DNA of 64,000 bases, taken from NCBI GenBank assembly GCA_001179505.1, contig CDMY01000283.1, forward strand, positions 62,001 through 126,000. Reading direction: 5' to 3'. A program made the translations under genes and the position numbers. Each line of letters begins with the position of its first letter. Position 1 is the first letter of the stretch. Source of the DNA: Vitrella brassicaformis CCMP3155 (Eukaryota > Protista > Chromerida). The notes beneath the pieces are model-generated. The model did no database searches. It worked only from the letters and a program-made list of their open reading frames with translations, and was not told where the DNA came from. This document shows positions 7,000 through 38,830 of the stretch, piece by piece.

Positions 7000-8002
7000 G
7001 TTTGCTGCTTCTCAGAAAGGCGGTCCTTTGGTCCGACGAAAAAAAAGCGAGAAAAAGAGACAGATTTAGAAATTTGCCGAATCATGTTTGTGTCTTGCAG
7101 CCAGCTGAGAAGTTTTCCCAACGACGACATCCTCCTGACCAGCTAGAAGGCATGCGTATGGAAGCCATAAAGGTAGTCGCGTGCTCACGTGCACTGTCAG
7201 AAATTCAGGATGCTCACTGATTTCTTCAGCAGAAAAACGAGCTGTGTTTTCAGACAAATGCGGAGCTTCTGAGTAGGCCAGTCGCCTCATTTGCGCCGCC
7301 ACCAAGGTCTCTATATATCTTGACGAAGACTCGACATCTATCCCTTTTGCCTTCTCTTTCAGCTCAGCGAAAGAAGTCTGGCGGCAGCGTTGCCCTCAAG
7401 CATTATCCTGAAAGCCACTCAGGTACGCATGAGTAAGGGAGAAAAAAGAGGAAAGAGTATATATTTGCTCATGTCTCCTCTGTATTTCCTCTCTTTTCAT
7501 ACTTGGCCGCTTCGGCGGCCATCGATCGGCCCAAGCTGCAGCACCGACTGGTAACCCCCGAATATGACATCCATGCATACATGTGCAGACCCTTGTGGGT
7601 GGCTGGCTGGATCGTGCAGCTGGCTGCTCCCCCGGTCATCGGCGTCAGGCCAGGCCAGGCCGTCAGGAGCCCTTCACTGGGTGAGCTCAGAACAAGTGCA
7701 CTATCAGACATATTTAGACGTCTCAGTCTATGTCGCCGCGATAGCCCGCAAGACGGCCAAGGAGGTAAGCTGGTGAGGATGTGGACAGGGAGGCAGGGAG
7801 GGAGGAAGGGAGCCTGACTTACAGTGGGAGAGTGGGAGAGTGGGTATTTTCAGGCGTCGTTTGGATCGTCAGATGAGAGACGTCAACGCCGCCGTGTGTG
7901 TGTGTGTGTGTGTGCAGAAGTGCATTGTCGGTGTCGGTTCTTCGGACAAGGCCACCACTACGCCTGTCGAGCCCTCTGGTCCGTCCCGTCCGCTCGTGCG
8001 TG

Positions 8003-10027
8003 ATGGGTGGTCGTGCTCGTGGTCGTGGTCGTGGTCGTGGTCGTGGGCCACCTCCCCAGAAGGAGTGGCGTGAAAACGTCAAGGTATGTGAAGCGAGGGA
8101 GGGTGACGAGGGAGAGAACAGGGAAGGCGAAGGCATGTCGGGAGGCATTTCTGCTGTCTTGATCTTTCGCAGGCCGTCCAGGAGCCCCTCTCCCCGACGG
8201 CTACCACCACCACCAGCAGCGACGGCAGCGACACGGTGCGCAGAGTGCCGCACACACACTTGCATTCACGCACACACAGATGCTTGCACGCCTGTCCATG
8301 TCCGTGTGTGTTGGTGTGCTCTGATCACAGGATTCCCACTTCGTCAAGGATGAGGTGAGTACGACACACACACACACACAGTTGACGAACGGAGATCTGA
8401 TGAGTTGTGGCTGGGTGTGTCTGACAGAACTACCCCATATTGCCGGGCTCCCAGGACAACCCAGTGTTGAGCGCCGACAAGGTATGCAAAAGTGGCACAC
8501 CCGGAAACCAGCAGACGTGTACACAAATGCAACTATCCTCAGGGAATGTGGAACCGCCAGTCCAAAAAGGTCATGGAGCCACCCAAGATGACCGCCAAGA
8601 CTAGCACCAAGAAGGTGAGCACGACGTACGTAAAGCTCTCACACAGAAGTCTGATAATTTGCTGCTGTGATCATCGACGTACATCTATCCCACTGTGTGT
8701 AGGTTTGCACCAGCCAAGGCCAACCCGCGCCCAAGTTCGACACCGTTGACGTGATCACGTGTTTCCTGGTGGCCGTCCTCGTGCAGCGACGACTGACGTT
8801 CGTGCTCCCGCTCCACTCCACAGCCTTTCGGAAGGCCAACCGCCACATCTCGGCCAACCGCCACATCTCGGCCCTGAGAGCGAGCGAGGAGGCTCCTCAA
8901 CCCGCCGCGTCCCCCACCAGCCAGCACACTCAAGAAACCGAAAAGGTCTGCCGGAACGATCAAAAGACCTGCTCAGCCTTCCCAATGTGCTCTCCCTATG
9001 TGTTGTCGCAGAGCGCTCTCCCCTGTGGTTCCCAGTTCACCGGACAAGGACGTCGGGGTGTCTGGGCGTGTGTGGGCTTGCCACCACCAACACTAAAGCC
9101 TACACGTTCTCGAGCCTGCTCACAGCCTCGCAGTTTCTCATCTTATCACCACGACGCCGGCCAAGGTATGCAGGAATGGCACACCCGAAACCAACAGACG
9201 GTACACACATGCAACTGTGCACAGAACAAGAGTGTGTGGGACAACCCTCCAAGAAGGTTACGGAGCCCGACACCCCGACCGGCAGCACCAAGACTACTGG
9301 CACCGAGGGCAGCGCTAAGGTGCGCACAGTGACACTCACGCACACGATGTCTGCATGGCTGTCCATCAACGTGTGTGTGTGTGTGTGTGTTTGTGTGTCC
9401 CAGGAGGCCAAGGTAGAGCACGCACACACAAGTCTGATGATTCGCTGCTGTGATGCATCGACGTGAATCTGTGCGTGTATGTGCAGGGCACCCACCGCCA
9501 CCACCTGCTGACCTACCTGAACTACTAAAAAGGCAACAACAAGGTGCGCAGGCAGCACACACACGCATCCATCCACCCAGCCCCCACATTGTCTGCATAT
9601 CTCTCTGCGCATATCAATGTGTGTGCAGACGGACAAGTGCTACCATTGTGGCTGCCCGGGGCACGGCTACAAGCAGTGCCCAAAGCTCGCCGCCGCGCTC
9701 GCTGAGGCCGCCGAGGCCGCCAAGGACGTACGTAAAGATTTGACGGACATCTACACATACACACACCGACACACACCCCCTTAGATGCCCGACATGGCTA
9801 ACTGTGTGGACGTGTGCAGGACCCGCGTTTCCACATCGTGACTGCCCCGGGTACCGAGACTGCCGAGACCGCCCAGAAGACGACCGAGACCGCCAACAAG
9901 AAGACGCGCACACACACGACCAAGGTACGTAGATTGACACAAACATCCACACACATTCACACATCCACTCATTTGCTTTCGCACACCATTTGTGTGTGTG
10001 TAGAAGTGGGTGCCTGTCGCGCGCTAA
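8003..10027 (+). pseudogene. Family A zinc-knuckle gene copy, disrupted
   Basis: Exons MGGRARGRG...KEWRENVK, AVQEPLSPT, NYPILPG, GMWNRQSKK, a foreign insert at about 8745-8945, EAK micro-exon, in-frame TAA at 9526, knuckle TDKCYHCGCPGHGYKQCP at 9629, DPRFHIV exon, terminal KWVPVAR*. Confidence 0.7.
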
Positions 10028-10129
10028 GCGCACCACACACCCACGCCACCACACCCACCCACCACTCACCCCCCCCACACACACACAAATGGTGTGCGAA
10101 AGCAAATGAAGAACAAGGCAAAGCGAGTT

Positions 10130-10770
10130 GAACAACAAGGTCAAGGCAAAGCACACATACAGAAGTCTGATGCTTCGCTGCTGTGATGCATCGACGTGTG
10201 CACGTCTGTGCGTGTGTGTGCAGGCGTGTCCCAACACCCGCCACCCCGCGGCGGTCAGCTTCACCTTCTTCAAGGGGCGCAACAAGGTGCGCAGGCAACA
10301 CACACACACGCATCCATCCAGCCACCACATTGTCTGCATATCTCTGTGTGCGCATATCAATGTGTGTGCAGTTCATCAAGTGTTTCTGGTGCGGGGAGTA
10401 CGGGCATGGCTACCTCGACTGCCTGGATTTCCGCGCGAAACTCGCCTCTGCCAAGCCCAATTGAGTACGCAAAGACCAGACATCCACACAAAGATACGCC
10501 CACACACCGACGCACACACCCTTAGATGCCCGACATGGCTGTCTGTGTGTGTGCAGAACCCATTCTGGATCATCGAGGCGCCCGCCGTGACGGCTTTCGT
10601 GCTGACCCTCAAGCTCGAGCCCGCCAAGCCCGAGCCCGCCATGCCCGAGCCCGCCAAGCCCAACAAGAAGGGCAAGAAGGTACGCACATGGGCACACACA
10701 TCCACTCATTCACTCGTTTGCTTTCACACTGTGTGTCGGTGTGTAGAAGTGGATGCCGAAGAACGCCTAG
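10130..10770 (+). pseudogene. Family A second (type-2 knuckle) cassette with nonsense codon
   Basis: Exons ACPNTRHPAAVSFTFFKGRNK, FIKCFWCGEYGHGYLDCLDFRAKLASAKPN* (TGA 10462), NPFWIIEAP..., KWMPKNA* (10747-10770). Confidence 0.7.
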
Positions 10771-12089
10771 GCCGGCAAAGCCATGCAGTAGGTGGCCAGA
10801 GCAGACCGACTAACTCGTCTGTATGCCCACCGGCCTGTTTGTCTGCAGGCGGTCCATCGCTGCTTACATTTTATATTCGATGGGCATCTTTCCCCTTCAA
10901 CGCTCCGCATCATGTGTGAGCCGCTTAAGGACGTCGATCTATCGGTAGACACGTGTCTCTTGTGTGGCCCTGTGCCGTCTCAGGAGAAGTGGCTCAACCA
11001 CGAAAAGACTTGTCTTCTGTCCTCTTCTCTCTGTGGCTGGGTGGTGTGCAGATCGCTGGCTACATTTCATTTTTTGATCGGCCGATGACAGCCCCCTTCG
11101 ACCGCACTGCCTTGCTGGCCGTTTGCAACTCGAAGGTGAGCTGTCGAAGTATTCTTTACTGATCAAGCCGTGTGTACGTGTCTCGTGTCTCTGCGTGTGC
11201 AGATGGATCGCCGTCTCCCTCTGACATCTCCGATGCGCCTGCCTACTTCATCCATTTAGCCTGCCCCCGGGCGGCCCCACAGGTACGGAAGTGAGGGAGA
11301 CACAAAAGAGGCGACAATCAAGATATGCTCATGTCTCTTCTCTTTCGTCTGTCTGTCTGTCTACGCATCTTTGGCCGCTCTGCCGGCCCCCGAGAGACGC
11401 CTCCTCTATCTGGCCCGCCAGTGACACGGACACGGACACAGATGCCTCCATGGCTGTCTATGGCCATGTGTGTGTCTGTGTGTATGTGTGTGTGTCTGAT
11501 GATTTCACGACACCCAGGAGGCCAAGGTATAGCACACACACACAAGTCTAACGATTCGCTGCTGTGATACATCGAAGTGTGTCTGTGTGTGTGCAAGACC
11601 CCAGATTCTACGTGGTGCCCGCCCCAGGTGCGGAGACCGCCCAGATCGCCCAGAAAGCCGAGACCGCCCAGACCGCCCAGAAGGAGGAAGGGCACCACGC
11701 TTTCCTTTTCACTCACCTTTAACTCCCGAGGCGGCGAGAGGGCGGTGCCGTGCACTCCCTCATTCTATCTCTGCTTAGCTGAGTAGCTATAGTCCACCAG
11801 CTTGCTGAATAGTCCACTAGCTTGAGGGGCCCTTACTCACCAACATGACGAGATGCCTGATGAAGAAGTTCTACAAGAAGGCCACGAAGGTACACAGGGA
11901 GGGGGGCTGAGGGAAAGGCACCACGAGGGAGTCGGGGGGAGGCACCTCGGGGAGCTTGTCTTCGTCTGCCTATCCGTGACGCAGGCCGTCGTCGAGGTGC
12001 CGGAGGACCAGCGCCCGCTGTGGTGAGTGGAGCGTGGATGTGGGCTGCCTCACACCGTCCGTCGTCCGTCGCCCGGTCCGTTTATCGTG

Positions 12090-12786
12090 ATGGGGCGTCA
12101 TGGTCAACGTCATGGGCAGTTTCCTTGTAGGAGTGGTCGTCAGCAAGGTCGTGGGCGTGCGGAGCGATGCGAGAAGCAGGTATGCGAAGCGAGGGAGGGT
12201 GATGAGGGAAGATCAGGGAAGAAGAAGGCATGTCGGGAGCCGTTCCTGCGGCTTGATCTTTCGCAGGAGCAGGTTGTCAGAGAGCCGCCCTCCCCGACGG
12301 CTAGCACCACCACCACCACCACCAACGACACCATCACCAAGGTGCGCAGAGTGACACACACTTGCATTCACGCGCATACAGATGCCTTCATGCCTGTCCC
12401 TGCCTCTGTGTGTGTGTGTGTGTGTGTGTGTCTGTGTGCTCTGATCACAGGGTTTCCAGTTTGCCCAGGACAAGGAGGTGAGCATGACACACGCACAATT
12501 GACGAATGGATGTCTTATCGGTTGTGGCTGTATGTGTCTGACAGAACTATCCCACGCTCCTGCCGGGCGTCAAGGACAGCTACACCACTACGCCGCCGGC
12601 CAAGGTATGCAGAAGTGTACACATGCACCTGTCCACAGGGACTGTGGAACAACACTTCCAAGGCCGTGTTCGCCAGGAGCACTTGGACCGCTTTGCCAGG
12701 ATGTTGGACGAGATCAACTGAGGAGCTCAACGCTCAAGAGGGGGAGACCGCCAAATTGAAGGCCAAGGAAGCACAAGAAGCGCGCA
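12090..12786 (+). CDS. Chimeric family A/family C gene, open reading frame across the junction
   Basis: MGRHGQRHGQFP...CEKQ, EQVVREPPSPT, GFQFAQDKE, NYPTLLPG, then fused exon GLWNNTSKAVF-ARSTWT...EELNAQEGETAKLKAKEAQEARKKAKAHE. End coordinate approximate; downstream exons uncertain. Confidence 0.45.
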
Positions 12787-13339
12787 AGAAAGCCAAAGCC
12801 CACGAGGTACTCAGGCGAAACATACATCAGCCGTTGCCGCGCATATGGACTTTGAGCTATGATGCATCTGCTGTTATGAGTGCAGCGTAAGGTAACACGT
12901 GTCCGGATCGCCGTTAAGCGCGCCAAGAATGCCCAGGCACGAGAGGAACAGGAGACGGCACACGTATGAAAGAAAATCGTGTCACTTATCGCATCTGGAT
13001 GGATGGTTTTGTGTATGTCTGCGTGTCTGTGTGCAGCTGATCCGTATCACCTCTGGCAAGCTCGAAGTCCGTCAGCGCATCCACCCCTCCCCAGACACAC
13101 ATCGGCAACCGTATGCGCACACACACCGAGATGCACAAGCACGGTGTGAGAACACGACCGGTCACTGTGAGAGTCATCCTCTTGTGTGTCTGTACTCGCA
13201 GATCGAATCGTTGTCTACGTTTTATATTCGTCGGCATATCTTCGCTTCTTCGCAGTCATGTCTCCGACAGGATCAGACCAAGACCTCGATGGCAAAGACA
13301 TACATGCAATACATCAGGAATACTTTGTCTTCACTTCTG

Positions 13340-14190
13340 TTCTCTCTGTGGCTGGGTGGTGTGCAGATCGCTGGCTACATTTTATATCCGATCGACCAAT
13401 GACGACCCCTTCAACCGCACTGCCTTGCTGGCCGTTTGCACATCGAAGGTGAGCTGCAAAAGTATTCTATACTGATCAAGCCGTGTGTACGTGTCTCGTG
13501 TCTCTGCGTGTGCAGATGGATCGCCGTCTCCCTCTTACATCTCCGAGGCTCCTACCTACTTCATCCATTTAGCCTGCCCCCGGGCGGCCCCATAGGTACG
13601 GAAGTGAGGGAGACACAAAAGAGGTGGTAATCAAGATTTGCTCATGTCTATTCTCTTTCGTCTGTCTGTCTGTCTACGCATCTTTGGCCGCTCTGCCGGC
13701 CCCCGAGAGACGCCTCCTCTATCTACTGGCCCGCTACCCCACTGGCCAGCCCACGGCTTACAGCCTCCGCCCACAGCTGCCAGATGGAGGCAGCTATAAG
13801 GTACGCTGCCTGACGTGATGTGGGTACTCACCTGTGTGTTCCCATCTGTTCTGCGATCCTCAGGAAGTCATTCGTCTCCTTAAGGAGAAGTTGCGCGCCG
13901 AGCGGAACAAGAGGGCCAGGAAGGAGGGCCCTCTAGAGCAGGTAGGAGGGAGAGGGAAGGCGGGCCAATGGCTGCCAACGACCTCTGCTGCCCTGTCTTT
14001 CAGGAGATCCTGAAGTTGTGCCGGGTGAACTCTGAGTTGAACCAGGTAAGATCATCGACTTGAGCACATGCCAATCTGAATGCCGTGTGGTGTGTGCGTA
14101 GGAGCTGACGGCCAAGAAGGGCGACAACCGTCAACTGCTGGAGCAGCTCACCGATAATAACTTCAAGAAACCTGCACGCAAGGTAAGCAT
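13340..14190 (+). pseudogene. Family B coiled-coil gene fragment
   Basis: Exons SLATFYIRSTNDDPFNRTALLAVCTSK, MDRRLPLTSPRLLPTSSI* (TAG), EVIRLLKEKLRAERNKRARKEGPLEQ, EILKLCRVNSELNQ, ELTAKKGDNRQLLEQLTDNNFKKPARK. Confidence 0.6.
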
Positions 14191-14529
14191 GAAAGGAGTA
14201 TGCACCTCCTTCAATCATGCGTTTGTGTGTGTGTGTGGGTTTGTGTGTCAGACGACAGCGACGCAGACGGTATCACTGACACATGGGCAGATCGACGTCC
14301 ATTCTACGTCTGTGTGTGTGGGTGTGTGTGTAGGTCAACGAGCCGAGCGTTGGTGGCGGCGGCGCGGTCCAATCTCCTCCTGCGGTCCAGGTATGTACGC
14401 GCCACCACTCACTCACAAATGGGCAGATCGACGTCCATTTATTCTACGTTTGTCTGTGTGTGGGTGTGTGTGTAGGTCAACGAGCCCTCTCCGAGGCGTA
14501 ATCAACGGCTCCCGTCTGTGTGTGGGTGT

Positions 14530-17500
14530 GTGTGCAGCTGTGTTCCCACCGCCCCCACCTGCTCACCTACCTCAACTACTACAATCGCGTCAAGGTGCGC
14601 AGGCAGCACACACACACGCATCCACCCAGCCCCCACACAGTCTGCGTATCTCTGCGTGCGCATATCAATGTGTGTGCAGAACAACGTGTATTTCCATTGC
14701 GGCTGCCCGGGCCATGGCTTCAAGCAGTGCCCGAAGTTCCACGCCAAACTCGCCGAGGCCGCTGCTGCTGCCAAAAACGTACGCAAAGATCGGACGGCCA
14801 CACACACACACCGACGCACAAAGCCTTAGATGCCCGACATGGCTGTCTGTGTGGCTGTCTGTGTGCAGGACCCGCGTTTCCACATCGTGCCCGCCCGGGT
14901 GCCGAGATCTCCAAGAACCGTTCCACCACGGCAATTTCCCTGTGGGACCGGTCGTCGAGGTCAGCAGCGCCAGGAGCAGTTGCGTAAGGAGTGGCGCCGT
15001 GTCGTCAAGGTATGCGAAGCGAGGGAGGGTGATGAGGGAGGGAACAGGGAAGGAGAAGGCACGTCGGGAGCCGTTCCTGCGGGCTTGATCTTTCGCAGGA
15101 GCAGGTTGTCATGGAGCCGCCCTCCCCGACGGGCAGCACCGCCAGCACCAGCAACGACATCGACACCGACACGGTGCGCAGAGTGCCGCACACTTGTATT
15201 CACGCGCGCACACATGCCTGCATGCCTGTCTCTGTCTGTGTGTGTCTGTGTGGCTGTGTGCTCTGATCACAGGGTTCCAACTTCGACAAGAATGTGAGCA
15301 CGAGACACACACACTTGACGAATGGACATCTGATGAATTGTGGCTGTGTGTGTCTGACAGAACTTCCCCTCACTGCCGGGCGCCAAGGACAAGCTCACCA
15401 CGACTCCGCGAGACACGGTATGCAGAGGTGACAGACCCGAAACCATCAGACGTGTACACACATGCAACTGTGCACAGGGCAAGTGGGAGAAACGCTCGAA
15501 GAAGGTCATGGAAGCGCCCACGCCCACCAACAGCACCAAAAGCACCACCAACGGCAGCGTGAAGGTGCACACAGTGACACTCACAGACACAGATGCCTGC
15601 ATGGCTGTCCATCAATCTGTGTATGTGTGTGTGTCTNNNNNNNNNNNNNNNNNNNNNNNNNNNNNNNNNNNNNNNNNNNNNNNNNNNNNNNNNNNNNNNN
15701 NNNNNNNNNNNNNNNNNNNNNNNNNNNNNNNNNNNNNNNNNNNNNNNNNNNNNNNNNNNNNNNNNNNNNNNNNNNNNNNNNNNNNNNNNNNNNNNNNNNN
15801 NNNNNNNNNNNNNNNNNNNNNNNNNNNNNNNNNNNNNNNNNNNNNNNNNNNNNNNNNNNNNNNNNNNNNNNNNNNNNNNNNNNNNNNNNNNNNNNNNNNN
15901 NNNNNNNNNNNNNNNNNNNNNNNNNNNNNNNNNNNNCCGACATGGCTGTCTGTGTGGCTGTCTGTGTGCAGGACCCGCGTTTCCACATCGTGCCCGCCCG
16001 GGTGCCGAGATCTCCAAGAACCGTTCCACCACGGCAATTTCCCTGTGGGACCGGTCGTCGAGGTCAGCAGCGCCAGGAGCAGTTGCGTAAGGAGTGGCGC
16101 CGTGTCGTCAAGGTATGCGAAGCGAGGGAGGGTGATGAGGGAGGGAACAGGGAAGGAGAAGGCACGTCGGGAGCCGTTCCTGCGGGCTTGATCTTTCGCA
16201 GGAGCAGGTTGTCATGGAGCCGCCCTCCCCGACGGGCAGCACCGCCAGCACCAGCAACGACATCGACACCGACACGGTGCGCAGAGTGCCGCACACTTGT
16301 ATTCACGCGCGCACACATGCCTGCATGCCTGTCTCTGTCTGTGTGTGTCTGTGTGGCTGTGTGCTCTGATCACAGGGTTCCAACTTCGACAAGAATGTGA
16401 GCACGAGACACACACACTTGACGAATGGACATCTGATGAATTGTGGCTGTGTGTGTCTGACAGAACTTCCCCTCACTGCCGGGCGCCAAGGACAAGCTCA
16501 CCACGACTCCGCGAGACACGGTATGCAGAGGTGACAGACCCGAAACCATCAGACGTGTACACACATGCAACTGTGCACAGGGCAAGTGGGAGAAACGCTC
16601 GAAGAAGGTCATGGAAGCGCCCACGCCCACGCCCACGCCCACGACGACCACCACCGGCAAGACGACCAACAAGGTGCGCACAGTGACACTCATGGACACA
16701 GATGCCTGCATGGCTGTCCATCAATCTGTGTATGTGTGTGTGTGTGCAGGTGTGTCCCCACCGCCACCACGTGCCGCTCATCGTGAAGACCAAGGATCGC
16801 GTCAAGGTGCGCAGGCAGCACACACACACACGCATCCACCCAGCCACCACACTGTCTGCATATCTCTGTGTGCGCATATCAATGTGTGTGCAGAACAACC
16901 TGTGTTTCCACTGTGGCCAGCCCGGACACTTCCACTCGAACTGCCCGAAGTTGGCCGCCGAGCTCGCCGCCGCTGCTGCTGCTGCTGCCAGAAACGCACG
17001 CAAAGATCGGACATCCACACATACACACACCGACGCACACACCCTTAGATGTCCGACATGGCTATCTGTGTCTGGCTGTGTGCAGGACCCCAGATTCTAC
17101 ATCGTGCCCGCCCCTGGTGCCGCCACCCAGAAGACCACGGAGACCGCCAACAAGAAGGTGCGCACGCACACCACCAAGGTAGGTAGATGGACACACATCC
17201 ACACATCCACTCATTGGCTTTCACATACTGTGTTGGTGTGTGTGTGTGTGTGTGTGTGTCGAAGTGGGTGTCCAAGACCAAGGCGGCCGGCACGCCTTAG
17301 GCGCACAACACCACCCACACCCTCACACCACCACCACGCCACGGCCAAACTCTAGGCCAACCACTGCGTCAAGGTGTGCAGGCAACTCACACACACACAC
17401 AAACACACATCCATCCATCCATTCGTCTGTCTGTCTACGTATCTCTGTGTGCGCATATCAATGTTTGCGCTGCAGGTGTGCTTCTGGTGCGGGGAACCCG

Positions 17501-18017
17501 GCCACGGATACCTCGACTGCCTGGATTTCCGCGCCAAGCTCGCCGCTGCCAAGCCCAATCCAGTATGCAAAGACCAGACATCCACACAAAGATACGCGCA
17601 CACACCGACGCACATCCTGAGATGCCCGACATGGCTATCTGTCTGGGTGTGTGCAGAACCCGTTCTGGATTATCGAGGCGCCGAGCGTTACGGCCCCCGT
17701 GCTGACCGTCAAGACGGAGCCCGCCAAGCAGACCAAGAAGCCATCGGAGAAGGTAGGCAGATGGGCACACACATCCATTCATTTGTTTTCACGCTGTGTG
17801 ATGGTGTGCGTAGATGTGGATGCCGAAGAAGTCCGCCTGTCCGTTTGTGTGTCTTGTCAGTAATTGGACAGCAGGTTTGCTTGCGTACAGACACCCAAGA
17901 CACACACGCATCTATCCATCCATGCCTTTCCATCCATCTGTCCGTGCAGATTGCTGGCTACATTTTATATTTGATCGACTGATGACAAGCCCGCAACCCT
18001 GCCTTATCCCGCCGTGA
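14530..18017 (+). CDS. Family A head-to-tail multi-unit gene with up to three knuckle exons (spans an N gap)
   Basis: Phase-0 exons: degenerate knuckle NNVYFHCGCPGHGFKQC (14680), fused DPRFHIV...KEWRRVVK exons (14869, 15972), NFPSLPG, GKWEKRSKK, VCPHRHHVPL, NNLCFHCGQPGHFHSNC (16894), ANHCVK, VCFWCGEPGHGYLDC (17476), NPFWIIEAP, MWMPKK...*. The gap flanks may be an assembly duplication. Confidence 0.5.
15637..15936. other. Assembly gap (300 N)
   Basis: Run of n; sequence left of the gap (14830-15636) is nearly identical to sequence right of it (15937 onward). Confidence 0.99.
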
Positions 18018-19655: not shown

Positions 19656-19673
19656 TGTGGCTGTCTGTGTGCA

Positions 19674-22249: not shown

Positions 22250-22504
22250 AGGATCAGGCGCCCGCTGTGGTGAGTGCAGCGTGGATGTGGGCTGCTCACT
22301 CCTCTTTCGTGCACTCTTTCGCAGATGGAAGAGGAGATCAAGGAGCTGGAGCTGCGCAAAGAACAGAAACGCTAGGAGCACTTGGACCGCTTTGTCAGGA
22401 TGTTGGACGAGATCAACTGAGGAGCTCAACGCTCGAGAGGGGGACACCGCCAGATTGAAGGCCAAGGAAGCACAAGAAGCGCGCAAGAAAGCCAAAGCCC
22501 ACGA
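22250..22504 (+). pseudogene. Family C coiled-coil gene fragment with stops
   Basis: AVVEVPEDQAPAV exon, then MEEEIKELELRKEQKR*EHLDRFVRMLDEIN* with a 1-nt insertion before EELNAREGDTARLKAKEAQEARKK. Confidence 0.6.
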
Positions 22505-26177: not shown

Positions 26178-27310
26178 ATGGGAGGTCGTGCTCGCCGTTA
26201 TCGTCCTGACTGGCCCGAGTGTGATGGCCTGACGGTATGTCGTCATGAAGGTCGTCAAGGTATCAGTGGCGTGGCAGGTTGTCAAGGTATGTGAAGCGAG
26301 GGGAGGGAGGGTGATGAGGCAAGATCAGGGAAGGAGGAGGCATGTCGGCAGCCGTTCGTGTGGTCTTGATCTTTCGCAGTGGATAGCCAAGGAGCCGCCC
26401 ACGCCCACGGGCAGCACCACCGACACAAAGGTGCGCAGGGTGCCGCACACTTGCAGTCACACGCACACACAGATGCCTGCATGCCTGTCCCTGTCTGTGT
26501 GTGTGTGTGTGTGTGTATGTGTGCGCTCTGATCACAGGGTTCCAAGTTCAAGGACGCCGTGAGCACACGACACACCCACACTTGACGAATGGACATCTGA
26601 TGATGAATTGCTGCTGTGTGTGTCTAACAGGCGTTTCCTGCACTGCCTGGCAGCAAGGACGACACGAACTACACCGCGCCGCGAGACAAGGTATGCAGAA
26701 GTGGCACACTCGAAACCAGCAGACGTGTACACACATGTAACTGTCCACAGGGACTGTGGAACCGCATGTCCAAGAAGGTGCTGGAGCCTTTCTTCGAAGA
26801 AGCTGTTCGAGGCTCCTACAAAGACTACCAGGACCACCAGCAAGGTACGCACACCACTCGCCAGCACAGACGCCTGCANNNNNNNNNNNNNNNNNNNNNN
26901 NNNNNNNNNNNNNNNNNNNNNNNNNNNNNNNNNNNNNNNNNNNNNNNNNNNNNNNNNNNNNNNNNNNNNNNNNNNNNNNNNNNNNNNNNNNNNNNNNNNN
27001 NNNNNNNNNNNNNNNNNNNNNNNNNNNNNNNNNNNNNNNNNNNNNNNNNNNNNNNNNNNNNNNNNNNNNNNNNNNNNNNNNNNNNNNNNNNNNNNNNNNN
27101 NNNNNNNNNNNNNNNNNNNNNNNNNNNNNNNNNNNNNNNNNNNNNNNNNNNNNNNNNNNNNNNNNNNNNNNNNNNNNNCAAGGCACCAAAGAAGGTAGGC
27201 AGATGGGCACACACATCCACTCATTCACTCGTGTGCTTTCACGCTGAGTGTCGGTGTGTGTAGGTGTGGGTGCCGAAGGTGCCCAAGCCCGATGCCGCCA
27301 TGGCCACACA
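26178..27310 (+). pseudogene. Family A copy, frameshifted first exon, interrupted by gap
   Basis: ATG GGA GGT CGT GCT... is out of frame with the ...WQVVK donor; 26600-26878 and 27179-27540 are duplicated at 31080-31340 and 31840-32215. Confidence 0.55.
26879..27178. other. Assembly gap (300 N)
   Basis: Run of n. Confidence 0.99.
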
Positions 27311-27869
27311 GTAGGTGCACAAGACCGACGAACTCGTCTGTTTGCCCACCGGCCTGTTTGTCTGCAGGCCTGAAATCGCTGCTTACATTTTACATTTGAC
27401 CGACTGATGACGACCCCTTCAGCCGCACTGCCTTGCTGGCCGTTTGCACATCGAAGGTGAGCTGTCAAAATATTCTTCACTGATCAAGTCATGTGTAAGT
27501 GTCCCGTGTCTGCGTGTGCAGATGGATCGCCGTCTCCCTCTGACATCTCCCATGCGCCTACCTACTAAATCATCCATTCAGTCTGCCCCGGCGGCCCCAC
27601 AGGTACGGAAGTGAGGGAGACACAAAAGAGGTGATAATCAAGATTTGCTCATGTCTTTCTCTTTTCTCTGTTTGTCTCCGCATCTTTGGCCGCTTTGGCG
27701 GCCCCCGAGAGACGCCTCCTCGATCTACTGGCCCGCTACCCACTGACCAGCCCACGGCCTCCACTCGCAGCCCTGATGACGCTGCCAGATGGAGGCAGCG
27801 ATAAGGTACGCTGCCTGACGCGATGTGGGTACCCATCTGTGTGGTCCCATCTGTTCTGCGATCCTCAGG

Positions 27870-28500
27870 AGATTGCTCGTCTGCTACGGGAGAAGCTGCG
27901 CACCGAGCGGGAGGTGTGGGCCAAGAAGGAGGCCATGTTCGAGCAGGTAGGAGGGAGAGGGAAGGCGGGCCAATGGCTGCCAACAACCTCCGCTGCCCTG
28001 TCTTTCAGGAGCTGTTGCGTGTGTGCCGGGAGAACTCGGAGATCAACAAGGTAAGATCATCGACCTGAACACATGCCAATCTGGATGCCGTCTGGTGTGT
28101 GTGCGCAGGAGCTGAGGGCCGCCAAGCAAGACAACAACCAGCTACTCACGAAGCCAGCAGTCAAGGTAAGCGTGAGAGGAGTGACGGCTTCAATCATGCA
28201 TTTGTGTGTGGGGGTTTGGGTGTCAGACGACAGCGACCCTACCAGAGGGGAGCTGCGTGGCACTTCTCCCTCTACGCCTCCGCCCGTGCCGTCCATCTAT
28301 CCATCCACCCTGCCATCCATCATGGGAGGGAAGGCGGGCGGCAAGAAGAAACAGATGCGCGACAAGGCCGCCAAGAAGGTAAGCGAGGGAGGAAGATATG
28401 GGCGGGAGGCAGGGAGGGAGGCTGATTCACATTGGAGCGGACGCCTGTGTGTGGCTCCTGTTGGCATGCCTTTTTTCAGGCCGTAAGCTCCGACGCACCG
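27870..28500 (+). pseudogene. Family B coiled-coil gene fragment
   Basis: EIARLLREKLRTEREVWAKKEAMFEQ | ELLRVCRENSEINK | ELRAAKQDNNQLLTKPAVK. Confidence 0.55.
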
Positions 28501-28614
28501 TCAACGTCCAGCACCGCAAGTACCGCTAGCGCCATCGAGGTGCGCGAATCATGGGCTCCCCTGACGGCTTGTTGGGTACTCATTCGAATGTTCCCATGTG
28601 TGCTGCGACTCTCA

Positions 28615-29534
28615 GGAGTTGATCCGTCTGCTCAAGGACAAGCTGCGCACCGAGCGGGAGGAGTGGGCCAAGAAGGAGTAGACACTCGAGCAGGTAGGAG
28701 GGAGAGAGAAGGCGGGCTGATGGCTGCCAACACCCTCTGCTGCCCTGTCCTTCAGGAGATCCTGAAGCTGTGCCGCGTTAATTCAGAGTTGAAGCAGGTA
28801 AGATCATCGACATGAACACATGCCAATGTGAACGCCGTGTGGTGTGTGTGCAGGAGCTAAAGGCCATGAAGGACGACAATCAAAACCTGCTGGACAAAGT
28901 TCAAGTGTTGGTACGCGCCACCCACTCATTCACACATGAGCAGATCGACGTCCATTCATTCTACGTTTGTCTGTGGGTGTTGCTGTCATGCAGGTGCGTC
29001 CCGGCTACAACGCCAGCATCAACGGACCCAACAGCGAGGTAGGCGAACAGAATGAGAGGCGGCGGTACATCTACAAAGCACAATCTGATCTGCTTGGTCC
29101 GTGTGAACAGGCGTTCCCCGTGTTCAATCCGGCAGTCAAGTGCGAGCGCCTGCGCCATCAAGTATGTGTGGTGGTAGCAAAGATGTAAGTCTAAAGTGTG
29201 CAGGACATCTCCTTTGTCATTCCTTGTGTTGTGCAGGATCACCACTGTCGCCAGCCGCCCTACAAGTTCAATAAGTGCCCGTGACAGTCGGCGGCAGCCA
29301 TCGGTCAGCGAGACAGATAAAGAGAGAACCATTAGAACATTTCTGGTTTCTGTTTGCCTGTGCAGGCTGCCGCCTGACATACAGGGAGGAGCTCGAGGAC
29401 TTCTGGAGGGGTCGGTGCTTCAACTGCGAGCGGCTGGGCCATCATGGCAGTGTGTGCTGGCACCTCCCGGTCCCTCCCCATCTCCGCCACCCCCGGCCCC
29501 CTGCCCGCTTTGGGGGCTGGGGGAGCCCCTGTAA
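28615..29534 (+). pseudogene. Family B copy ending in a CCHC zinc knuckle, with nonsense codon
   Basis: ELIRLLKDKLRTEREEWAKKE* (TAG 28679), EILKLCRVNSELKQ, ELKAMKDDNQNLLDKVQ, VRPGYNASINGPNSE, and terminal ...FWRGRCFNCERLGHHGSVCWHLP (knuckle at 29416-29457). Confidence 0.6.
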
Positions 29535-29833
29535 GTCGCTTTGGGGCTTTGGTGGATGGCAAAAACATACACATACATACTTACAGGAGTACTTCTCTCT
29601 GTGGCTGGGTGGTGTGCAGATCGCTGGCTACATTTTATATTTTGATTGGCCGATGACGACGACTTGGACCGGACTGCCTTGCTGGCCGTTTGCACATCGA
29701 AGGTGAGCTGTCAAAAAATACTATACTATATAGCTGCATCCCTGCCTGCCTTATCCCTGCCCACAGCCAGCCACCGAGCGAGCCCTGCCCTCTCTCTCTC
29801 TCGTGCGTCCGTCCATCCATCCCTCCGTCCGCG

Positions 29834-31078
29834 ATGGGTGGTCGTGCTCGTGGTCGTGGTCGCCAGCAGCCGCCACCTCCCCAGTATCAGTGGCGGCAGG
29901 TCATGAAGGTATGTGAAGCGAGGGAGGGTGATGAGAAAAGATGATGGAAGGAGGAGGCATGTCGGGAGCCGTTCCTGCTGTCTTGATCTTTCGCAGGCCG
30001 TCCAGGAGCCGCTGTCCCCTACCGGCTGCACCAGCACCAGCACTAGCACTGAAGTGGAGGTGCGCAGAGTGCCGCACACTTGCATTCATGCGCACACGCC
30101 TGCATTCCTGTATGTGTGCGTGGGTGTGTGTGTCTGTGTGCTCTGATCACGCGGTTTCCAGTTCACGAAGGACAAGAAGGTGAGCACGACACACACACGC
30201 TTCACACGAATGGATGTCTGATGACTTTGTGGCTGTGTGTGTCTGACAGAAATTCCCGCTCCTGCCCGGCACCAACTACACGAAGGACATCAACACGATG
30301 CCGAAGGACAAGGTATGCAGAGGTGACACACTCGAAACCAACAGACGTGTACACACAAGCGATTGTGCACAGGGGAGATGAAACAAGCCGTAGAAGGCCG
30401 TCATGGAACCGCCCAAGCCGAAGTCGAGCACCAGGACCACCGACAAGGTACGCCAAGCGACACTCGCGTACACAGATGCCTCCATGGCTGTCCATGGCCA
30501 TGTGTGTGTATGTGTGTATGTGTGTGTGTCTGATGATTCCAGAGCGTCGAGGCCAAGGTAAAGCACACGCACACGGAAGTCTGACGATTCGCTGCTGTGA
30601 TGCATCGACGTGTGCACGTCTGTGCGTGTGTGTGCAGGCGTGTCCCAACAACCGCCACCCCGCGGCGGTCAGCTTCACCTTCTTCAAGGGGCGCAGCAAG
30701 GTGCGCAGGCAGCACACACACACACACGCATCCATCCAGCCACCACATTGTCTGCATATCTCTGTGTGCGCATATCAATGTGTTTTCAGTTCCAGAAATG
30801 TTTTTGGTGTGGTGAGTGTGGGCACGGCTACCTCGACTGGCTGGACTTCCACGCCAAACTCGCCGCTGCCAAGCCGAACAAAGTACGCAAAAACCAGACA
30901 CCCACACAAGATACGCGCACGCACCGACGCACACCCTTACATGCCCGACATGGATGTCTGTGTGTGCAGAATCCGTTCTGGATAATCAAGGCTCCTTCTG
31001 TGACGGCTCCCGTGCTGACCCTCAAGCCCGAGCCCGCCAGGCCCGAGCCTGCCAAGCCCGAGCCCGCCGAGCCCGGCT
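29834..31078 (+). pseudogene. Family A copy with nonsense codons and degenerate knuckle
   Basis: MGGRARGRGRQQPPPPQYQWRQVMK, KFPLLPG, exon 5 ggg aga TGA ... TAG, knuckle CFWCGECGHGYLDW (last Cys to Trp), NPFWIIKAP exon fused to a TG tract at about 31078. Confidence 0.7.
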
Positions 31079-31526
31079 GTGTGTGTCTGACAGACGTTTC
31101 CCACGCTGCCGGGCATCAAGGACGACACGAACTACACCGCGCCGCGAGACAAGGTATGCAGAAGTGGCACACTCGAAACCAGCAGACGTGTACACACATG
31201 TAACTGTCCACAGGGACTGTGGAACCGCATGTCCAAGAAGGTGCTGGAGCCTTTCTTCGAAGAAGCTGTTCGAGGCTCCTACAAAGACTACCAGGACCAC
31301 CAGCAAGGTACGCACACCACTCGCCAGCACAGACGCCTGCATGGATGTCCACCAATGTGTGTATGTGTGTGTGTGTGTGTGTGTGTATGTGTGTGTCTGA
31401 TTATTCAAGAGCGCTGAGGCGACGTCGTCTGGGGAGATAGCCGAGGCTGCCGCCAAGCCACAGAAAGTGCGCAAAGATCGGACATCCACACAAACAGACA
31501 CATCGACGCACACACCCTTACATGCC

Positions 31527-31826
31527 NNNNNNNNNNNNNNNNNNNNNNNNNNNNNNNNNNNNNNNNNNNNNNNNNNNNNNNNNNNNNNNNNNNNNNNNNN
31601 NNNNNNNNNNNNNNNNNNNNNNNNNNNNNNNNNNNNNNNNNNNNNNNNNNNNNNNNNNNNNNNNNNNNNNNNNNNNNNNNNNNNNNNNNNNNNNNNNNNN
31701 NNNNNNNNNNNNNNNNNNNNNNNNNNNNNNNNNNNNNNNNNNNNNNNNNNNNNNNNNNNNNNNNNNNNNNNNNNNNNNNNNNNNNNNNNNNNNNNNNNNN
31801 NNNNNNNNNNNNNNNNNNNNNNNNNN
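31527..31826. other. Assembly gap (300 N)
   Basis: Run of n. Confidence 0.99.
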
Positions 31827-32217
31827 CGTCAACCTCAAGCTCAAGGCACCAAAGAAGGTAGGCAGATGGGCACACACATCCACTCATTCACTCGTGTGCT
31901 TTCACGCTGAGTGTCGGTGTGTGTAGGTGTGGGTGTCGAAGGTGCCCAAGCCCGATGCCGCCATGGCCACACAGTAGGTGCACAAGACCGACGAACTCGT
32001 CTGTTTGCCCACCGGCCTGTTTGTCTGCAGGCCTGAAATCGCTGCTTACACTTTATATTTGACCGACTGATGACGACCCCTTCAGCCGCACTGCCTTGCT
32101 GGCCGTTTGCACATCGAAGGTGAGCTGTCAAAATATTCTTCACTGATCAAGTCATGTGTAAGTGTCCCGTGTCTGCGTGTGCAGATGGATCGCCGTCTCC
32201 CTCCGACATCGCCCATG

Positions 32218-32420
32218 CGGCCGCCAGCTCCTGCGCCCACACCACACGGCATTCAGATTGGCATGTGTTCAGGTCGATGATCTTACCTTGTTGATCTCCG
32301 AGTTCTCCCGGCACACACGCAACAGCTCCTGAAAGACAGGGCAGCGGAGGTTGTTGGCAGCCATTGGCCCGCCTTCCCTCTCCCTCCTACCTGCTCGAAC
32401 ATGGCCTCCTTCTTGGCCCA
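32218..32420 (-). repeat. Inverted ~200-bp fragment of family B
   Basis: Reverse complement of about 27917-28125 (tgggccaagaaggaggccatgttcgagcag...caggagctg). Confidence 0.9.
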
Positions 32421-33000
32421 TGGCTCGTGCTCCTCAGCGTCGTCAGCGTGGTCGTCCCCAGGCCACACCTCAGCGTCAAGAGTGGCGCAAAGTTGTCAAG
32501 GTACGTGAAGCGAGGGAGGGTGATGAGGGAGAGAATAGGGAAGGAGGAGACATGTCGAGAGAGCCGTTCCTGCGGTCTTGATCTTTCGCAGGCTATCAAG
32601 GAGGAGGAGCCGCTCACACCCACGGCCACCACGACCACAAGCACCGACACCGACACGGTGCGCAGAATGCCACACACTTGCAGTCACACGCACACAGATG
32701 CCTGTTCATGCCTGTCCACGTCTGTGTGTCTCTGTGTGTGTGTGTGTGTGTGTGCTCTGGTCACAGGGTTCCGACTTCGTCAAGGATGAGGTGAGTACGA
32801 CACACACACACAGTTGACGAACGGAGATCTGATGAGTTGTGGCTGTGTGTGTCTGACAGAACTATCCCATGTTGCCGGGCTCCCAGGACAACCCAGTGTT
32901 GAGCGCCGACATTGTATGCAGGAATGGCACACTCGAAACAAAAAGACGTGTACACACATGCGACTGTCCACAGGGCAAGTGGGAGCACCCCTTCAAGGCC
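32420..33000 (+). pseudogene. Family A 5' half, truncated in exon 5
   Basis: MARAPQRRQRGRP...EWRKVVK, AIKEEEPLTPT, GSDFVKDE, NYPMLPG, GKWEHPFK, then joined to the leader of the next copy. Confidence 0.6.
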
Positions 33001-33308
33001 GTATTGGGGAGCGCCTTTGGCACGCCCTGTGTGCCGCCCTTTTAGCAGCCAGCAGCCTGCCTCCCTGCCTTTCCGCCACTGCCTGCCTCCCTGCCTGCCT
33101 CCCTGCCTGCCTCCCTGCCTGCCTCCCGTGCCTCCCTGCCTGCTTGCCTGCTCGCCACCTGCCGCTGCGTCGAGGCGCAGCAGCCAGCCAGCAGCCAGCC
33201 AGCCAGCCAGGCAGCCAGCCTCGCTCTCTCTCTCTCCTCGGGCGCCCCTCTCTCGCCCTCTGCCATCCGTCCATCCATCCACCCATCCATCCATCCAGCC
33301 AGCCAGCC

Positions 33309-34976
33309 ATGGGACGTCATGGTCAACGTCATGGGCACTTTCCTCGTGGAAGTGGTCGTCAGCGATGCGAGAAGCACGTATGCGAAGCGAGGGAGGGTGA
33401 TGAGGGAAGATCAGGGAAGAAGGAGGCATGTCAAGAGCTGTCCCTGCGGTCTTGATCTGTCGCAGTGGGTCAAGAAGGACCCGCCGTCTCCGACGGCTAG
33501 CACCACTACCACCACCACCACCGACACCAAGGTGCGCAGAGTGCCACACACTTGCATTCACGCGCACACAGATGCCTGCATGCCTGTGCCTGTCTGTGTG
33601 TGTGTGTGTCTGTGTGTGTGTGTGTGCTCTGATTACGGGGTTTCCAGTTCGACAAGGACAAGGAGGTGAGCACGACACACACACACTTGGCGAAGGGACA
33701 TCTGATGAATTGTGGCTGTGTGTGTCTGACAGGCCTATCCCATGCTGCCGGGCACCAAAGTTGACGAGTTCATGACGCCGCCACGAGACAAGGTATGCAG
33801 AAGTGACACACCCGAAACCAACAGACGTGTGCACACATGCAACTGTGCACAGGGCAAGTGGAACAAGCCGTCGAAGGCCGTGTTCGAGGCTCCCACCAAG
33901 ACCGCCACCACCAAGACCACTGCCAAGACAAGCACCAAGGTACGCACAGTGACACTGACGGACACAGATGCCTCCATGGCTGTCTATGGCCATGTGTGTG
34001 TGTGTGTGTGTATGTGTGTATGTGTGTGTATATCTGATGATTCCACGACACCCAGGAGAACAAGGTAAAGCACACACACACACGGAAGTCCGGCGATTCG
34101 CTGCTGTGATACATCGAAGTGTGTCTATGCGTGTGTGTGCAGGAGTGCGGCCGCCACCACGAGTTGACCAAGTTGAACCTGGACAACAACTGCCGCCACA
34201 AGGTGCGCGGGCAGCACACACACACACACACACACGCATCCACCCAGCCACCACATTGCCTACATATCTCTGTGTGCGCATATCAATGTGTGCAGACGAT
34301 CAAGTGCTTCTGCTGCGGCCAACCAGGCCATCGATGGCAGCAGTGCCCCAAGCTCACCGATGCCGCCGAGGCCGCCAAGAATGTGCGCGAAGATCGGACA
34401 TCCACACACGCACCGACGCACACACCCTTACATGCCCGGCATGGCTTTCTGTGTCTGCAGGACCCGCGGTTCTACATAGTCCCTGCCCCGGGTGCGAAGA
34501 CCGCCCAGACCGCCCAGACGATGAAGCCCAACCACACGACGAAGCCCAAGCCGACCACACAGAAGGTGCGGACATGGACACACATCACACAGTCACTCAT
34601 TCATTTGCTTTCACATACTGTGTGTTGGTGTGTGTGTTCGAGGCTCCCACGAAGACCAAGACCACTGCCAAGACGAACAAGGTACGCCATGCTCCCCCAC
34701 TTCGCGCGGGACTGCCCGGCTCCTCCCCAGACCAAGGTGCGCAAAGATCGGACATCCACACACACACACCGACGCACACACCCTTACATGCCCGACATGG
34801 CTATTTGTGTGTTTGTGGCAGAACCCGTTTTGGATCATCACTGCGGAGGGAGTCGTCAACCTCAAGCTCAAGGCACCGAAGAAGGTAGACAGATGGGCAC
34901 ACACGTCCACTCATTCACTCCTTTTACGCTGTGTGTCGGTGTATGTGCGTAGAAGTGGATGCCCAAGAACGCCTAG
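33309..34976 (+). CDS. Apparently intact family A zinc-knuckle gene (11 exons, all phase 0)
   Basis: MGRHGQRHGHFPRGSGRQRCEKH | WVKKDPPSPT... | FDKDKE | AYPMLPGTK... | GKWNKPSKAVFEAPT... | ENK | ECGRHHELTKLNLDNNCRHK | TIKCFCCGQPGHRWQQCPKLTDAAEAAKN | DPRFYIVPAPG... | NPFWIITAEGVVNLKLKAPKK | KWMPKNA*; no stops in this path. Confidence 0.7.
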
Positions 34977-36419: not shown

Positions 36420-36990
36420 CGCACAAGGTGGGCAGGCAGCACACACACATACGCATCCATCCAGCCACCACATCGTCTGCGTGTCTCTCTGCGCATATCA
36501 ATGTGTGTGCAGACGAAGAAGTGCTTCTGCTGCGGTCAACCGGGCCATGGCTGGCAGCAGTGCCCTAAGCTCACCGAGTTCGCTGCTGCTGCCAAAAACG
36601 TACACAAAGATCGGACATCCACACACACCCCGACGCACACACCCTTACATGCCGGACATGGCTATCTGTGTGTGCAGGATCCGCGTTTCTACATCGTTCC
36701 AGCACCCGTGGTCGCCACCCACACTAAAGAGCTCAAGCCGACCGCACAGAAGAAGGTGCGCAGATGGACACACACATCACACAGTCACTCATTCCACGCT
36801 TTGTGTGGGAATGTGTGTGCAGGTCTGGGTGCCCAAGATCCGCGCCAACTGCCCCCAGCTGCGCCGTGGGGACACAAGGGTGACAAGGGCCAAGACATGT
36901 CGATTCATAGGCCTGCTCATGTCTCATCGTTTTGTATTCGGTGTCCAGATCGCTGTTTACATTTTATATTCCGATCGACGTCTTGTTCCC
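36420..36990 (+). pseudogene. Family A 3' cassette fragment
   Basis: TKKCFCCGQPGHGWQQCPKL (36513) | DPRFYIVPAPVV | VWVPKIRANCPQL; the 5' exons are replaced by unrelated microsatellite-rich sequence. Confidence 0.6.
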
Positions 36991-37464
36991 ATCCCCACAG
37001 CAGCAGCTGTGTCTCACGAGTAGGTGCTGACATGCGATGATCGAATGGCGCTGATTCTTTCCTGTCTCTCTTTGCAGACCGCATTCAAGCTGATTATTTT
37101 GCCCAGCGATCCCAAATATCTTCAAGTGGAGGTTGTCCCAGGACTCCTTGTGCGGATCGCTGGCTACGTTTTATATCGGTGGCCGTGTCTCCGTGGCTCG
37201 ATCTGCACTTTGGATGGTACGAGTGAGACACTGCAGACACTGCTCATATGTCTCCAATCTGTATGTCGGTGCCGAATTTCTAGCTATACACACACACACC
37301 TTCACAGACCACACACAGTGTGTGTATGTGTGTGTGTCAGAACGTGATGAGGGCATCAAGGTGCCGGCTCCAGTCAAGGCTGAGACGTCGGTAGCCATCC
37401 ACACACAGAGAGAGAGAGGACTGTATGTGTATCGGAGACAAGCCTGCTATATCAGGACCTGCTC

Positions 37465-37870
37465 AACCGCTTCGATGATGACGAAGTCTTTCAAGAAGAT
37501 CCTCTACAAGAGGACGACCAAGGTACGCAATGACGGGGACTGCGGGAAAGGGACGAGGGAATTGGAGGAAGGCACTTCGGGGGCTTGTGTTTTTCTGCCT
37601 CTGTCCGTGGCGCAGGACGTGGCTGCGGTACTCGATGAGGACATGCCCGAGCCGGTGAGTGGAGCGTGGATGTAGGCCGCCTCACTCCTCATCAGTGTGC
37701 ATTCGACGGAACAGGAGATCAAGGTGAAGCGCAAGGAGCACTTGGACTGATTCGAGATGATGCTAAGGGCGATCAACGAGGAGCTTGACAGTCGAGAGGA
37801 GGCAGCCAAGGCGATGAGGAGCCCATCAAGGAAGAGCAGGAGGCCATCAAAAACGCCAAAACCCGCCAGG
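37465..37870 (+). pseudogene. Family C coiled-coil gene with nonsense codon
   Basis: MMTKSFKKILYKRTTK | DVAAVLDEDMPEP | EIKVKRKEHLD*FEMMLRAINEELDSREE. Confidence 0.5.
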
Positions 37871-38110
37871 TACTAAGCTATGATGCACCCGCTGTGATGA
37901 CTGCAGCACAAGGCGACGGCGTGCTAAGGCGACCAAGTTGCGAGAGGAAAAGGAAACGGAGAGGGTATAAAACAAAACCTGTAGCTTGTCGCATCTGAAA
38001 AGGTCAGTAGAACGAAGCCACTCAGCCGACTTAGTAACGCCTCTCTCTCTCTCTCTCTCTTTTCACGTGTGTGTGTGCAGCTGAGCAACCACTGGAACGT
38101 AAGTATACAC

Positions 38111-38830
38111 ATGAAGACGATCATTCAGGCAAGAGTGATGGCACAAGCGAAGACCAAGACGGTCCGGCGAGTGGAGCAGGAACAGCGCAGACAGAAAAGC
38201 CACGAGCGAGAGGCAGGTGAGTTCGCCAAGGTGTGTGTGCATTGCTGTCATGCGTGCCCGAATCGGTGAGTGGAGCGTGGATGTGGGTTGCCTCACTCCT
38301 CATTCGTGCATTTTTTCGCAGACCGAAGAGGAGCTCAAGGAGCGCAAAGACCGCCGCAGGAAGCGTCACGAGGAGGACGTCGACCGGTTCGCCAAGCTGC
38401 TTGAGAAGATCACTCAGCAGCTCGACGACAAGGAGGGAGAGGCAGCCAAGTCCAAGGCCAAGGACGCCGAGGAGTCGCGCAAGAAAACGAAAGCTCGACA
38501 GGTACTCGGGCGAAACATACATCGGCCATTGCCGCGTACACGGAAGTGGAGCTATGATGCATCTGCTGTCATGAGTGCAGCGCAAGGCGACCCGCGTTAA
38601 GCGCGCGAAGGCGGCCCAACTGCGCGACGAACATGAGACGGCACGGGTATGATTTAAGAAAAAGCGTGTCAATTGTCGCATCAGGATGGATGGTTTTTTG
38701 TGTGTATGTCTGCGTCTGTGTGTGTGCAGCTGATCCGTATCCTCTCTGGCAAGCTCGAAGTCCGTCAGCGCATCCATCCCTCCCCCCCACACACATCAAC
38801 CACATGGATGGATCTCTTCCGTGTGTGTGT
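38111..38830 (+). CDS. Family C charged coiled-coil gene
   Basis: MKTIIQARVMAQAKTK...EFAK | TEEELKERKDRRRKRHEEDVDRFAKLLEKITQQLDDKEGEAAKSKAKDAEESRKKTKARQ | RKATRVKRAKAAQLRDEHET | LIRILSGKLEV...; 3' end uncertain. Confidence 0.45.

Follow-up and report, generated by a model that had tools for sequence, protein, structure and literature searches.

The stretch of DNA considered here, a 64,000-nucleotide window from contig CDMY01000283.1 of Vitrella brassicaformis CCMP3155, carries a tandem array of small genes with a CCHC zinc-knuckle exon, in which the introns of different copies resemble each other about four times as closely as the neighbouring synonymous sites do. This holds for nine introns, the edges of the contrast lie on splice sites, and the usual pattern of gene divergence is thereby inverted. 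The cluster is real and previously undescribed, it contains fewer intact genes than a sequence-only reading of positions 7400-38830 had claimed, and its inversion of intron and exon divergence is well measured. The array is bordered by a GrpE gene on one side and by ordinary genes, including a major facilitator superfamily (MFS) transporter gene, on the other side.

The type gene consists of ten coding exons and nine introns, every one of which lies between codons (phase 0); the earlier estimate of about ten introns was right as to intron richness and slightly high in number. Exon 1 encodes an RG-rich start with WxxVVK, exon 2 encodes EPPSPT and a Thr run, exon 3 is short and encodes GFQF, exon 4 encodes FPxLPG, exon 5 encodes GKW..SKKV and a second Thr run, exon 6 is a micro-exon of 9-18 nucleotides (nt), exon 7 is a Cys/His exon, exon 8 carries the knuckle, exon 9 encodes DPRFY or NPFW, and exon 10 ends the protein with W[MV]PK and a stop codon. 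The exact motif CX2CX4HX4C was found ten times, always on the forward strand (starts at 9638, 10381, 16903, 17479, 20631, 21200, 25925, 29416, 34305, and 36522), whereas 100 shuffles of 7400-38830 gave a mean of 0.1 and a maximum of 1. Two further knuckles are degenerate, with Tyr for the first Cys at 14680 and Trp for the last Cys at 30790, and two more half-knuckle relics are located at 25384 and 34698. Of the 12 knuckle exons, 5 match the zf-CCHC family (PF00098) with E values no higher than 0.1, the lowest being 1.3e-06. The spliced models of the copies at 33309 and 44000-45139 have 194 and 163 residues, isoelectric points of 9.9 and 9.75, lysine plus arginine contents of 20% and 17%, and threonine contents of 15% and 10%. 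Thus the twelve knuckle exons at the places claimed, the motifs WxxVVK, [DN][FY]PxLPG, and W[MV]PK, and the small basic K/R/T-rich character of the proteins were all confirmed. Atlas structure models of the knuckle proteins are unfolded, with predicted template modelling (pTM) scores of 0.18 and 0.13, and the predicted product is a basic, disordered protein that binds single-stranded nucleic acid and has a single knuckle along with short motifs of aromatic and basic residues.

Divergence was compared in 63 pairs of 14 distinct copies; this set excluded the near-identical duplicates beside the assembly gaps, the relic at 25.4 kb, the exon at 29416, and another two small pieces. In every one of the 63 pairs the exons were more diverged than the introns, with median proportions of difference of 0.49 at synonymous sites (pS), 0.36 at non-synonymous sites (pN), and 0.125 in introns. 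When fourfold degenerate sites were counted in unchanged codon boxes, 610 of 1331 (46%) differed, versus 1529 of 12187 intron sites (12.5%); six pairs with no copy in common gave 82/160 (51%) versus 199/1620 (12%; p 1e-28), with p ≤0.0015 for each pair. Identity is 0.88-0.96 in the intron and only 0.56-0.61 in the first codon of the exon, so that the edge coincides with the splice site. The presumed untranslated region (UTR) exons differ at 76 of 802 sites (9.5%), close to the 132 of 1450 (9.1%) in introns, and adjacent coding exons at 195 of 931 (21%). Two types of coiled-coil gene are interleaved with the knuckle genes, and the same contrast appears in a coiled-coil gene (56/169, 33%, at fourfold sites versus 76/1000, 7.6%, in introns), although these pairs are non-independent.

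The ordinary order of divergence was observed in a host control, a flanking gene (48400-53270, minus strand) that encodes a long coiled coil built of internal repeats, which have an exon identity of 64-66% and introns sharing 3-8 of their first 18 bases; three host introns are in phase 0, and the first MFS intron, judged by eye, is in phase 1. Among 413 intron columns of the knuckle genes 100 are singletons and 19 are three-state, versus 142 singletons in a model of young uniform introns and 36 singletons with 58 three-state columns in a model of old constrained ones, so the observed variation, which consists chiefly of singletons and transitions, lies between the two models and closer to the young uniform one. 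The two most conserved introns fold not unusually (z -0.4 and -0.1). Several causes of intron similarity were rejected: hosting of small nucleolar RNA within described families, with 0 Rfam matches; low complexity, with identities in one aligner of 0.88 for same-position introns, 0.67 for different-position introns, and 0.71 for exons; and an introner-type origin, introns at different positions being unrelated save for a weak likeness between introns 2 and 5.

The exons bear marks of selection and of apparent exchange. Only 3 of the 63 pairs have a pN higher than pS, the other 60 having a dN lower than dS, and the motif codons are conserved with changed third bases, which shows that they are under purifying selection. 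The 14 copies are mutually 34-84% identical as proteins, and clear shared blocks that suggest mosaics stand out in three pairs, among exons that are short and near saturation: the copies at 8003 and 32420 share exon 3, intron 3, and exon 4 at 92-99%, their other exons being 60-80% identical; those at 10224 and 29834 share exon 7 at 97%; and exon 10 is 96% identical between the copies at 10224 and 34953, with background values elsewhere.

Splicing at the predicted sites was observed for three copies (33309, 31094-31977, and 44000-45139). The best knuckle-bearing copy lies at 33309-34976 on the plus strand (annotated as CEL99566) and is supported by exon mapping and contigs, with exons 1-4 at 33309-33377, 33466-33531, 33648-33665 (fallback acceptor), and 33733-33792, exons 5-7 at 33853-33939, 34056-34064 (a 9-nt micro-exon), and 34143-34202, the knuckle exon 8 at 34296-34382, and exon 9 at 34461-34565. 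After exon 9 come pieces of another copy (34643-34736 and 34822-34884) and a last exon at 34953-34976, and the 3' end is uncertain. In an X16 contig exons 5 to 8 are spliced together over 159 nt with 0 mismatches at depth 2.5, so that it contains the 9-nt exon and the entire knuckle, and X13 contigs join 34736 to 34822 and 34884 to 34953, together with a 3' UTR intron. X13 also shows the final splice join in the copy at 31827-31977, and the transcriptome open reading frame (ORF) P0003 covers the last five exons of an open nine-exon copy without a knuckle exon at 44000-45139 on the minus strand (CEL99568), beyond the interval first described. X4 carries the 33309 copy unchanged, and the sediment metagenome run X9 contains, at depth 2-3, both identical and variant pieces; at window positions 33864 and 34734 its contigs show exon variants that are not identical to any in the window, including a different end of the knuckle exon. 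The public gene models are faulty, since one merges several copies into 1120 residues and another skips the spliced micro-exon. A family with neither expression nor purifying selection in any copy had been named as the case that would speak against the sequence-only reading; the copies that are spliced and the motif codons that are conserved point the other way.

These data are explained somewhat better than evenly by an old host family whose non-coding DNA has been homogenised by recombination between copies, whose exon variants persist and are reshuffled, and most of which is by now in decay in this strain. Gene conversion and unequal exchange would begin and resolve in the near-identical introns, so that recombination among copies would reset introns and UTRs, and phase-0 junctions would let exons swap partners in frame; because all introns are in phase 0, recombinant products would stay in frame. 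Selection would have held the exon variants, purifying on the motifs and probably diversifying between them, and because the variants were kept, synonymous sites would be old and introns young. The same recombination may have wrecked most copies in this strain. Birth-and-death evolution, as previously proposed, is borne out by the many paralogues with pseudogenes, and the term self-diversifying fits the mosaic exons and homogenised introns but not the broken state of most copies.

A number of observations weigh against this explanation. The control covers a single host gene with old internal repeats. The first exon codon is as diverged as exon interiors, though conversion tracts should spill into exon edges, and the median dN/dS of about 0.6 gives no evidence of positive selection; the sharp exon edge and the absence of dN/dS above 1 fit the recombination account less well. 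Some constraint on introns is indicated by 258 invariant columns versus 225 in the uniform model, and strong folding is predicted for three introns (z -2.5 to -3.4). The intron difference rises to 14.6% without dinucleotide runs and to 27% once gaps are counted, the contrast is weak in the youngest duplicate pair (3.9% in exons versus 2.3% in introns), and the correlation of distances between exons is near zero, which a star-shaped, saturated history fits too. The spliced contigs have a depth of only 2.5-4.5 and come from runs not on record as RNA, and in one X13 contig the donor at 34682 is read through, so the end of the 33309 protein is provisional.

The sharp exon edge is what would be expected if the copies were young and their coding exons mutated faster, through an exon-limited mutator or through overwriting from divergent intron-less templates. 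This explanation, which is rather unlikely in our estimation, also agrees with the 1641 of 4882 aligned codon pairs that differ at two or three positions and with the similar ratio in both gene types. However, the presumed UTR exons are spared, precise intron loss is absent from every catalogued copy, though it would be expected from complementary DNA templates, the fourfold spectrum tracks base composition with no single-base signature, and no reverse transcriptase (RT) was found in the nearby long frames that were scanned.

The state of the copies bears on the recombination account and on a further explanation alike. An unbroken chain from ATG to the knuckle exists for only 1 of the 12 knuckles, that of the 33309 copy, the other 11 standing in fragments, fusions, or stopped frames, so of the claimed array of twelve knuckle genes the knuckle exons stand and the twelve genes do not: there is one intact chain, one coiled-coil gene, and a remainder of fragments and chimeras. 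The other copies lack a start or upstream exons, or contain stops (exons at 9487, 10372, and 30373) or mutated acceptors (17262, 20985, and 30153). The array is also interrupted by four gaps of 300 N with 97-99% duplicates on their flanks, because of which the copy number of knuckle genes is uncertain, and a few copies may be assembly products, namely the gap-side duplicates and the segment 14869-15564, an exact patchwork of its two neighbour copies.

These features, together with low contig depth, would suit a dead or dying cluster that is partly inflated by assembly errors and transcribed only as background, its divergence pattern being the fossil of a past function. We regard this as improbable, since splicing is correct even at a 9-nt micro-exon, the open 44000-45139 copy yielded a transcriptome ORF, and the sediment metagenome holds identical and variant pieces; moreover, protein identities of no more than 34-84% among the fourteen copies are incompatible with assembly errors.

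The remaining copies all lie on the plus strand. A 5' half copy with exons 1-5 (8003-8614) and a 3' part copy from the end of exon 4 to exon 10, with a stop in exon 7 and the knuckle at 9638 (9145-10027), are separated by an unrelated open stretch at window positions 8703-9140 that has no Pfam match. They are followed by exons 7-10 with a stop at the end of the knuckle exon (10224-10770) and by exons 1-5 that have merged with part of a coiled-coil gene (12090-12671). The copy at 14538-15636 comprises exon 7, a degenerate knuckle exon, a fused exon 9/1, and exons 2-5, and ends at a gap; it is either a mosaic of the next two copies (15972-17858 and 19675-21576) or an assembly duplicate. The first of these two runs from a fused exon 9/1 to exon 10 with no start codon and a mutated last acceptor, and is followed by a second piece with exons 8-10; the second is its near duplicate, with 34 differences at 882 exon sites and 22 at 971 intron or spacer sites. 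A divergent relic at 25364-25984 contains a half knuckle, an exon 9-like exon, a WVPK exon, and then a knuckle exon with a stop. The copy at 26178-27314 has a frameshifted exon 1, exons 2-5, a gap, the end of exon 9, and exon 10; the pseudogene at 29834-31074 has exons 1-9 with two stops in exon 5 and a degenerate knuckle; and the copy at 31094-31977, whose last join is the one seen in X13, has exons 4-5, a gap, the end of exon 9, and exon 10, and is 97-99% like 26613-27556. Exons 1-5 at 32420-33021 adjoin a piece of a coiled-coil gene in inverted orientation (32219-32432), and exons 8-10 without upstream exons are found at 36513-36900, the start of CEL99567. The last exon of this 36513 piece (36823-36900) has WVPK fused to the end of a 25916-type knuckle exon (compare 25650-25984), which suggests that the ancestral gene may have had another knuckle behind WVPK.

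The knuckle at 29416 belongs to another gene, being the terminal part of a broken coiled-coil gene at 28322-29540 (plus strand). In window positions 29416-29530 this knuckle is followed by VPPHLR, which we take to resemble the DDX3/Ded1 N-terminal motif. The first type of coiled-coil gene has phase-0 introns and is represented by 13780-14390 (plus strand), one of five copies with core exons at 13864, 19028, 23582, 27869, and 28616. The second, charged type is found at 37478-38800 (plus strand) and in pieces at 11850-13110 and 22190-22830; contigs from both X13 and X16 span 37714-38000, and X13 also covers 38318-38498. Between 10856 and 40431 the plus strand carries 18 copies of a 20-nt motif (chance mean 0.01), mostly right behind splice acceptors and apparently in non-coding exons downstream of the genes; a spliced contig join leads into one such presumed exon, and one copy of the motif (40412) lies beyond the array. 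Farther out, tandem duplications of 90% identity stand on each side of the cluster, at 5714-7005 (with apparent splice sites) and at 42615-43954. Window positions 39127-42644 are covered by long X13 and X16 contigs at a depth above that of the knuckle genes, contain long frames without a Pfam match, and are possibly a long non-coding transcript.

The domestication of Gag genes or of open reading frame 1 (ORF1) of long interspersed nuclear elements (LINEs), which the sequence-only reading had put forward together with intronisation, is unlikely. The knuckle is of the retroviral type, clusters of viral and Gag knuckles score 0.76-0.84 in an Atlas feature search, as leads only, and one coiled-coil gene has a terminal knuckle. 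However, the knuckle fits host proteins equally well: its profile, generic and only 18 residues long, matches retroviral nucleocapsids and the host proteins TUT4/7, Air2, and RBBP6 alike. Pfam gives only zf-CCHC for the knuckle-gene proteins, no capsid, RRM, or gag family being found for P0001-P0005. No PDB match was found for P0005, and the unfolded Atlas models do not favour a capsid-like origin. Among 890 candidates the annotated 226-residue model matches only proteins of the same contig, and against 1.84 billion representatives it gives 13 matches, three on this contig and ten over the knuckle, with nothing outside the knuckle; the four of these ten that were examined are unrelated multi-knuckle proteins. 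The exon-9 profile matches four database proteins, three CCMP3155 models, all on one contig of 136,197 nt, and one transcriptome ORF, and has no match in viral contigs; likewise the intron pattern has no match in metagenome contigs.

The claim that the array is free of pol is supported, because RT, integrase, and protease families were absent from 77 of 182 long frames in 4000-48300, where an intron-split pol would escape. There are no repeats of at least 120 nt common to the left and right flanks of the kind expected from long terminal repeats (LTRs), nor is there a LINE ORF1p layout, as no RRM or RT family is present and coiled coil and knuckle meet in one broken gene only. A knuckle followed by WVPK is presumably a mark of Sirevirus Copia Gag, and WVPK had 0 occurrences in the Sirevirus papers found. 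Membership in Gag or ORF1 thus appears to fail, and descent from them is not supported, because the searches revealed neither a pol, capsid, or RRM domain nor a homologue beyond Vitrella. The accompanying view of a host-resident, intron-rich family without a described counterpart agrees with the gene anatomy and homologue searches. In the Vitrella literature outside subscription journals no description of the knuckle family or of the divergence pattern was found, and the terms "CCHC" and "zinc finger" are absent from the main text of the genome paper, as far as it was available (PMC4501334).

Very improbable is that the genes are cargo of a non-autonomous mobile element moved in trans. A coiled-coil fragment with a still-similar intron on a second scaffold (CEM05646), where 27 of 32 residues are identical and intron and exon are read through, would agree with it, as would the inverted piece and the inverted copy in the cluster; against it, the two flanks share no terminal repeats, the pieces are without constant ends, knuckle-gene proteins are found on one contig only, and transposable elements total only 1.5 Mb in Vitrella according to the available part of the genome paper (PMC4501334).

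Several known systems resemble the cluster in part. According to the passages available, the wtf genes of Schizosaccharomyces are likewise a lineage-restricted, intron-containing multicopy family with pseudogenes and changes in exon repeat length, and their patchwork exon histories arise by non-allelic gene conversion (PMC6526906, PMC13160552). In the same passages, however, introns more alike than synonymous sites are not reported, and wtf genes are dispersed, LTR-associated, and encode membrane poison-antidote pairs of proven function (PMC6526906, PMC13160552), whereas the Vitrella genes form one tandem cluster and encode soluble basic knuckle proteins. An algal family of receptors with leucine-rich repeats or tetratricopeptide repeats (LRR or TPR) is similar in that its genes arise and are lost at a high rate, have exons in phase 0, some of them inactivated, recombine intensely at the level of exons, and have been proposed as a variability system; there, one repeat exon is shuffled and diversifying selection was shown, whereas in Vitrella there are ten different exons, a disordered protein, and dN/dS below 1. 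Introns more conserved than exons are known from major histocompatibility complex loci, snake venom phospholipase A2, abalone lysin, and conotoxins, whose coding exons diverge beyond the flanking introns among alleles or paralogues. Those proteins are secreted or exposed on the surface and show excess non-synonymous change in one region, whereas the Vitrella products are predicted to be intracellular and the contrast extends over nine introns and all exons, synonymous sites included. With Gag nucleocapsid, LINE ORF1p, and host zf-CCHC proteins (PF00098) the cluster shares the CX2CX4HX4C knuckle in a basic context, but it differs in its nine spliceosomal introns and in the absence of capsid, RRM, protease, RT, and integrase, similarity being confined to the knuckle.

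In the known cases such an inversion marks genes of recognition or conflict, and the small size of the locus makes it suited to separating intron homogenisation, exon retention, and targeted mutation. Tentatively, and with a low probability that only slightly exceeds that of accelerated exon mutation in young copies, the broken copies may serve as a library of phase-0 exons, which would be recombined via the uniform introns, or spliced across copies, into one or a few expressed genes and give a variable RNA-binding repertoire for defence or genetic conflict; an exon-limited mutator might act to the same end. If this cassette reading is true, Vitrella, a free-living relative of the apicomplexans, would possess a variable repertoire of intracellular RNA-binding proteins.

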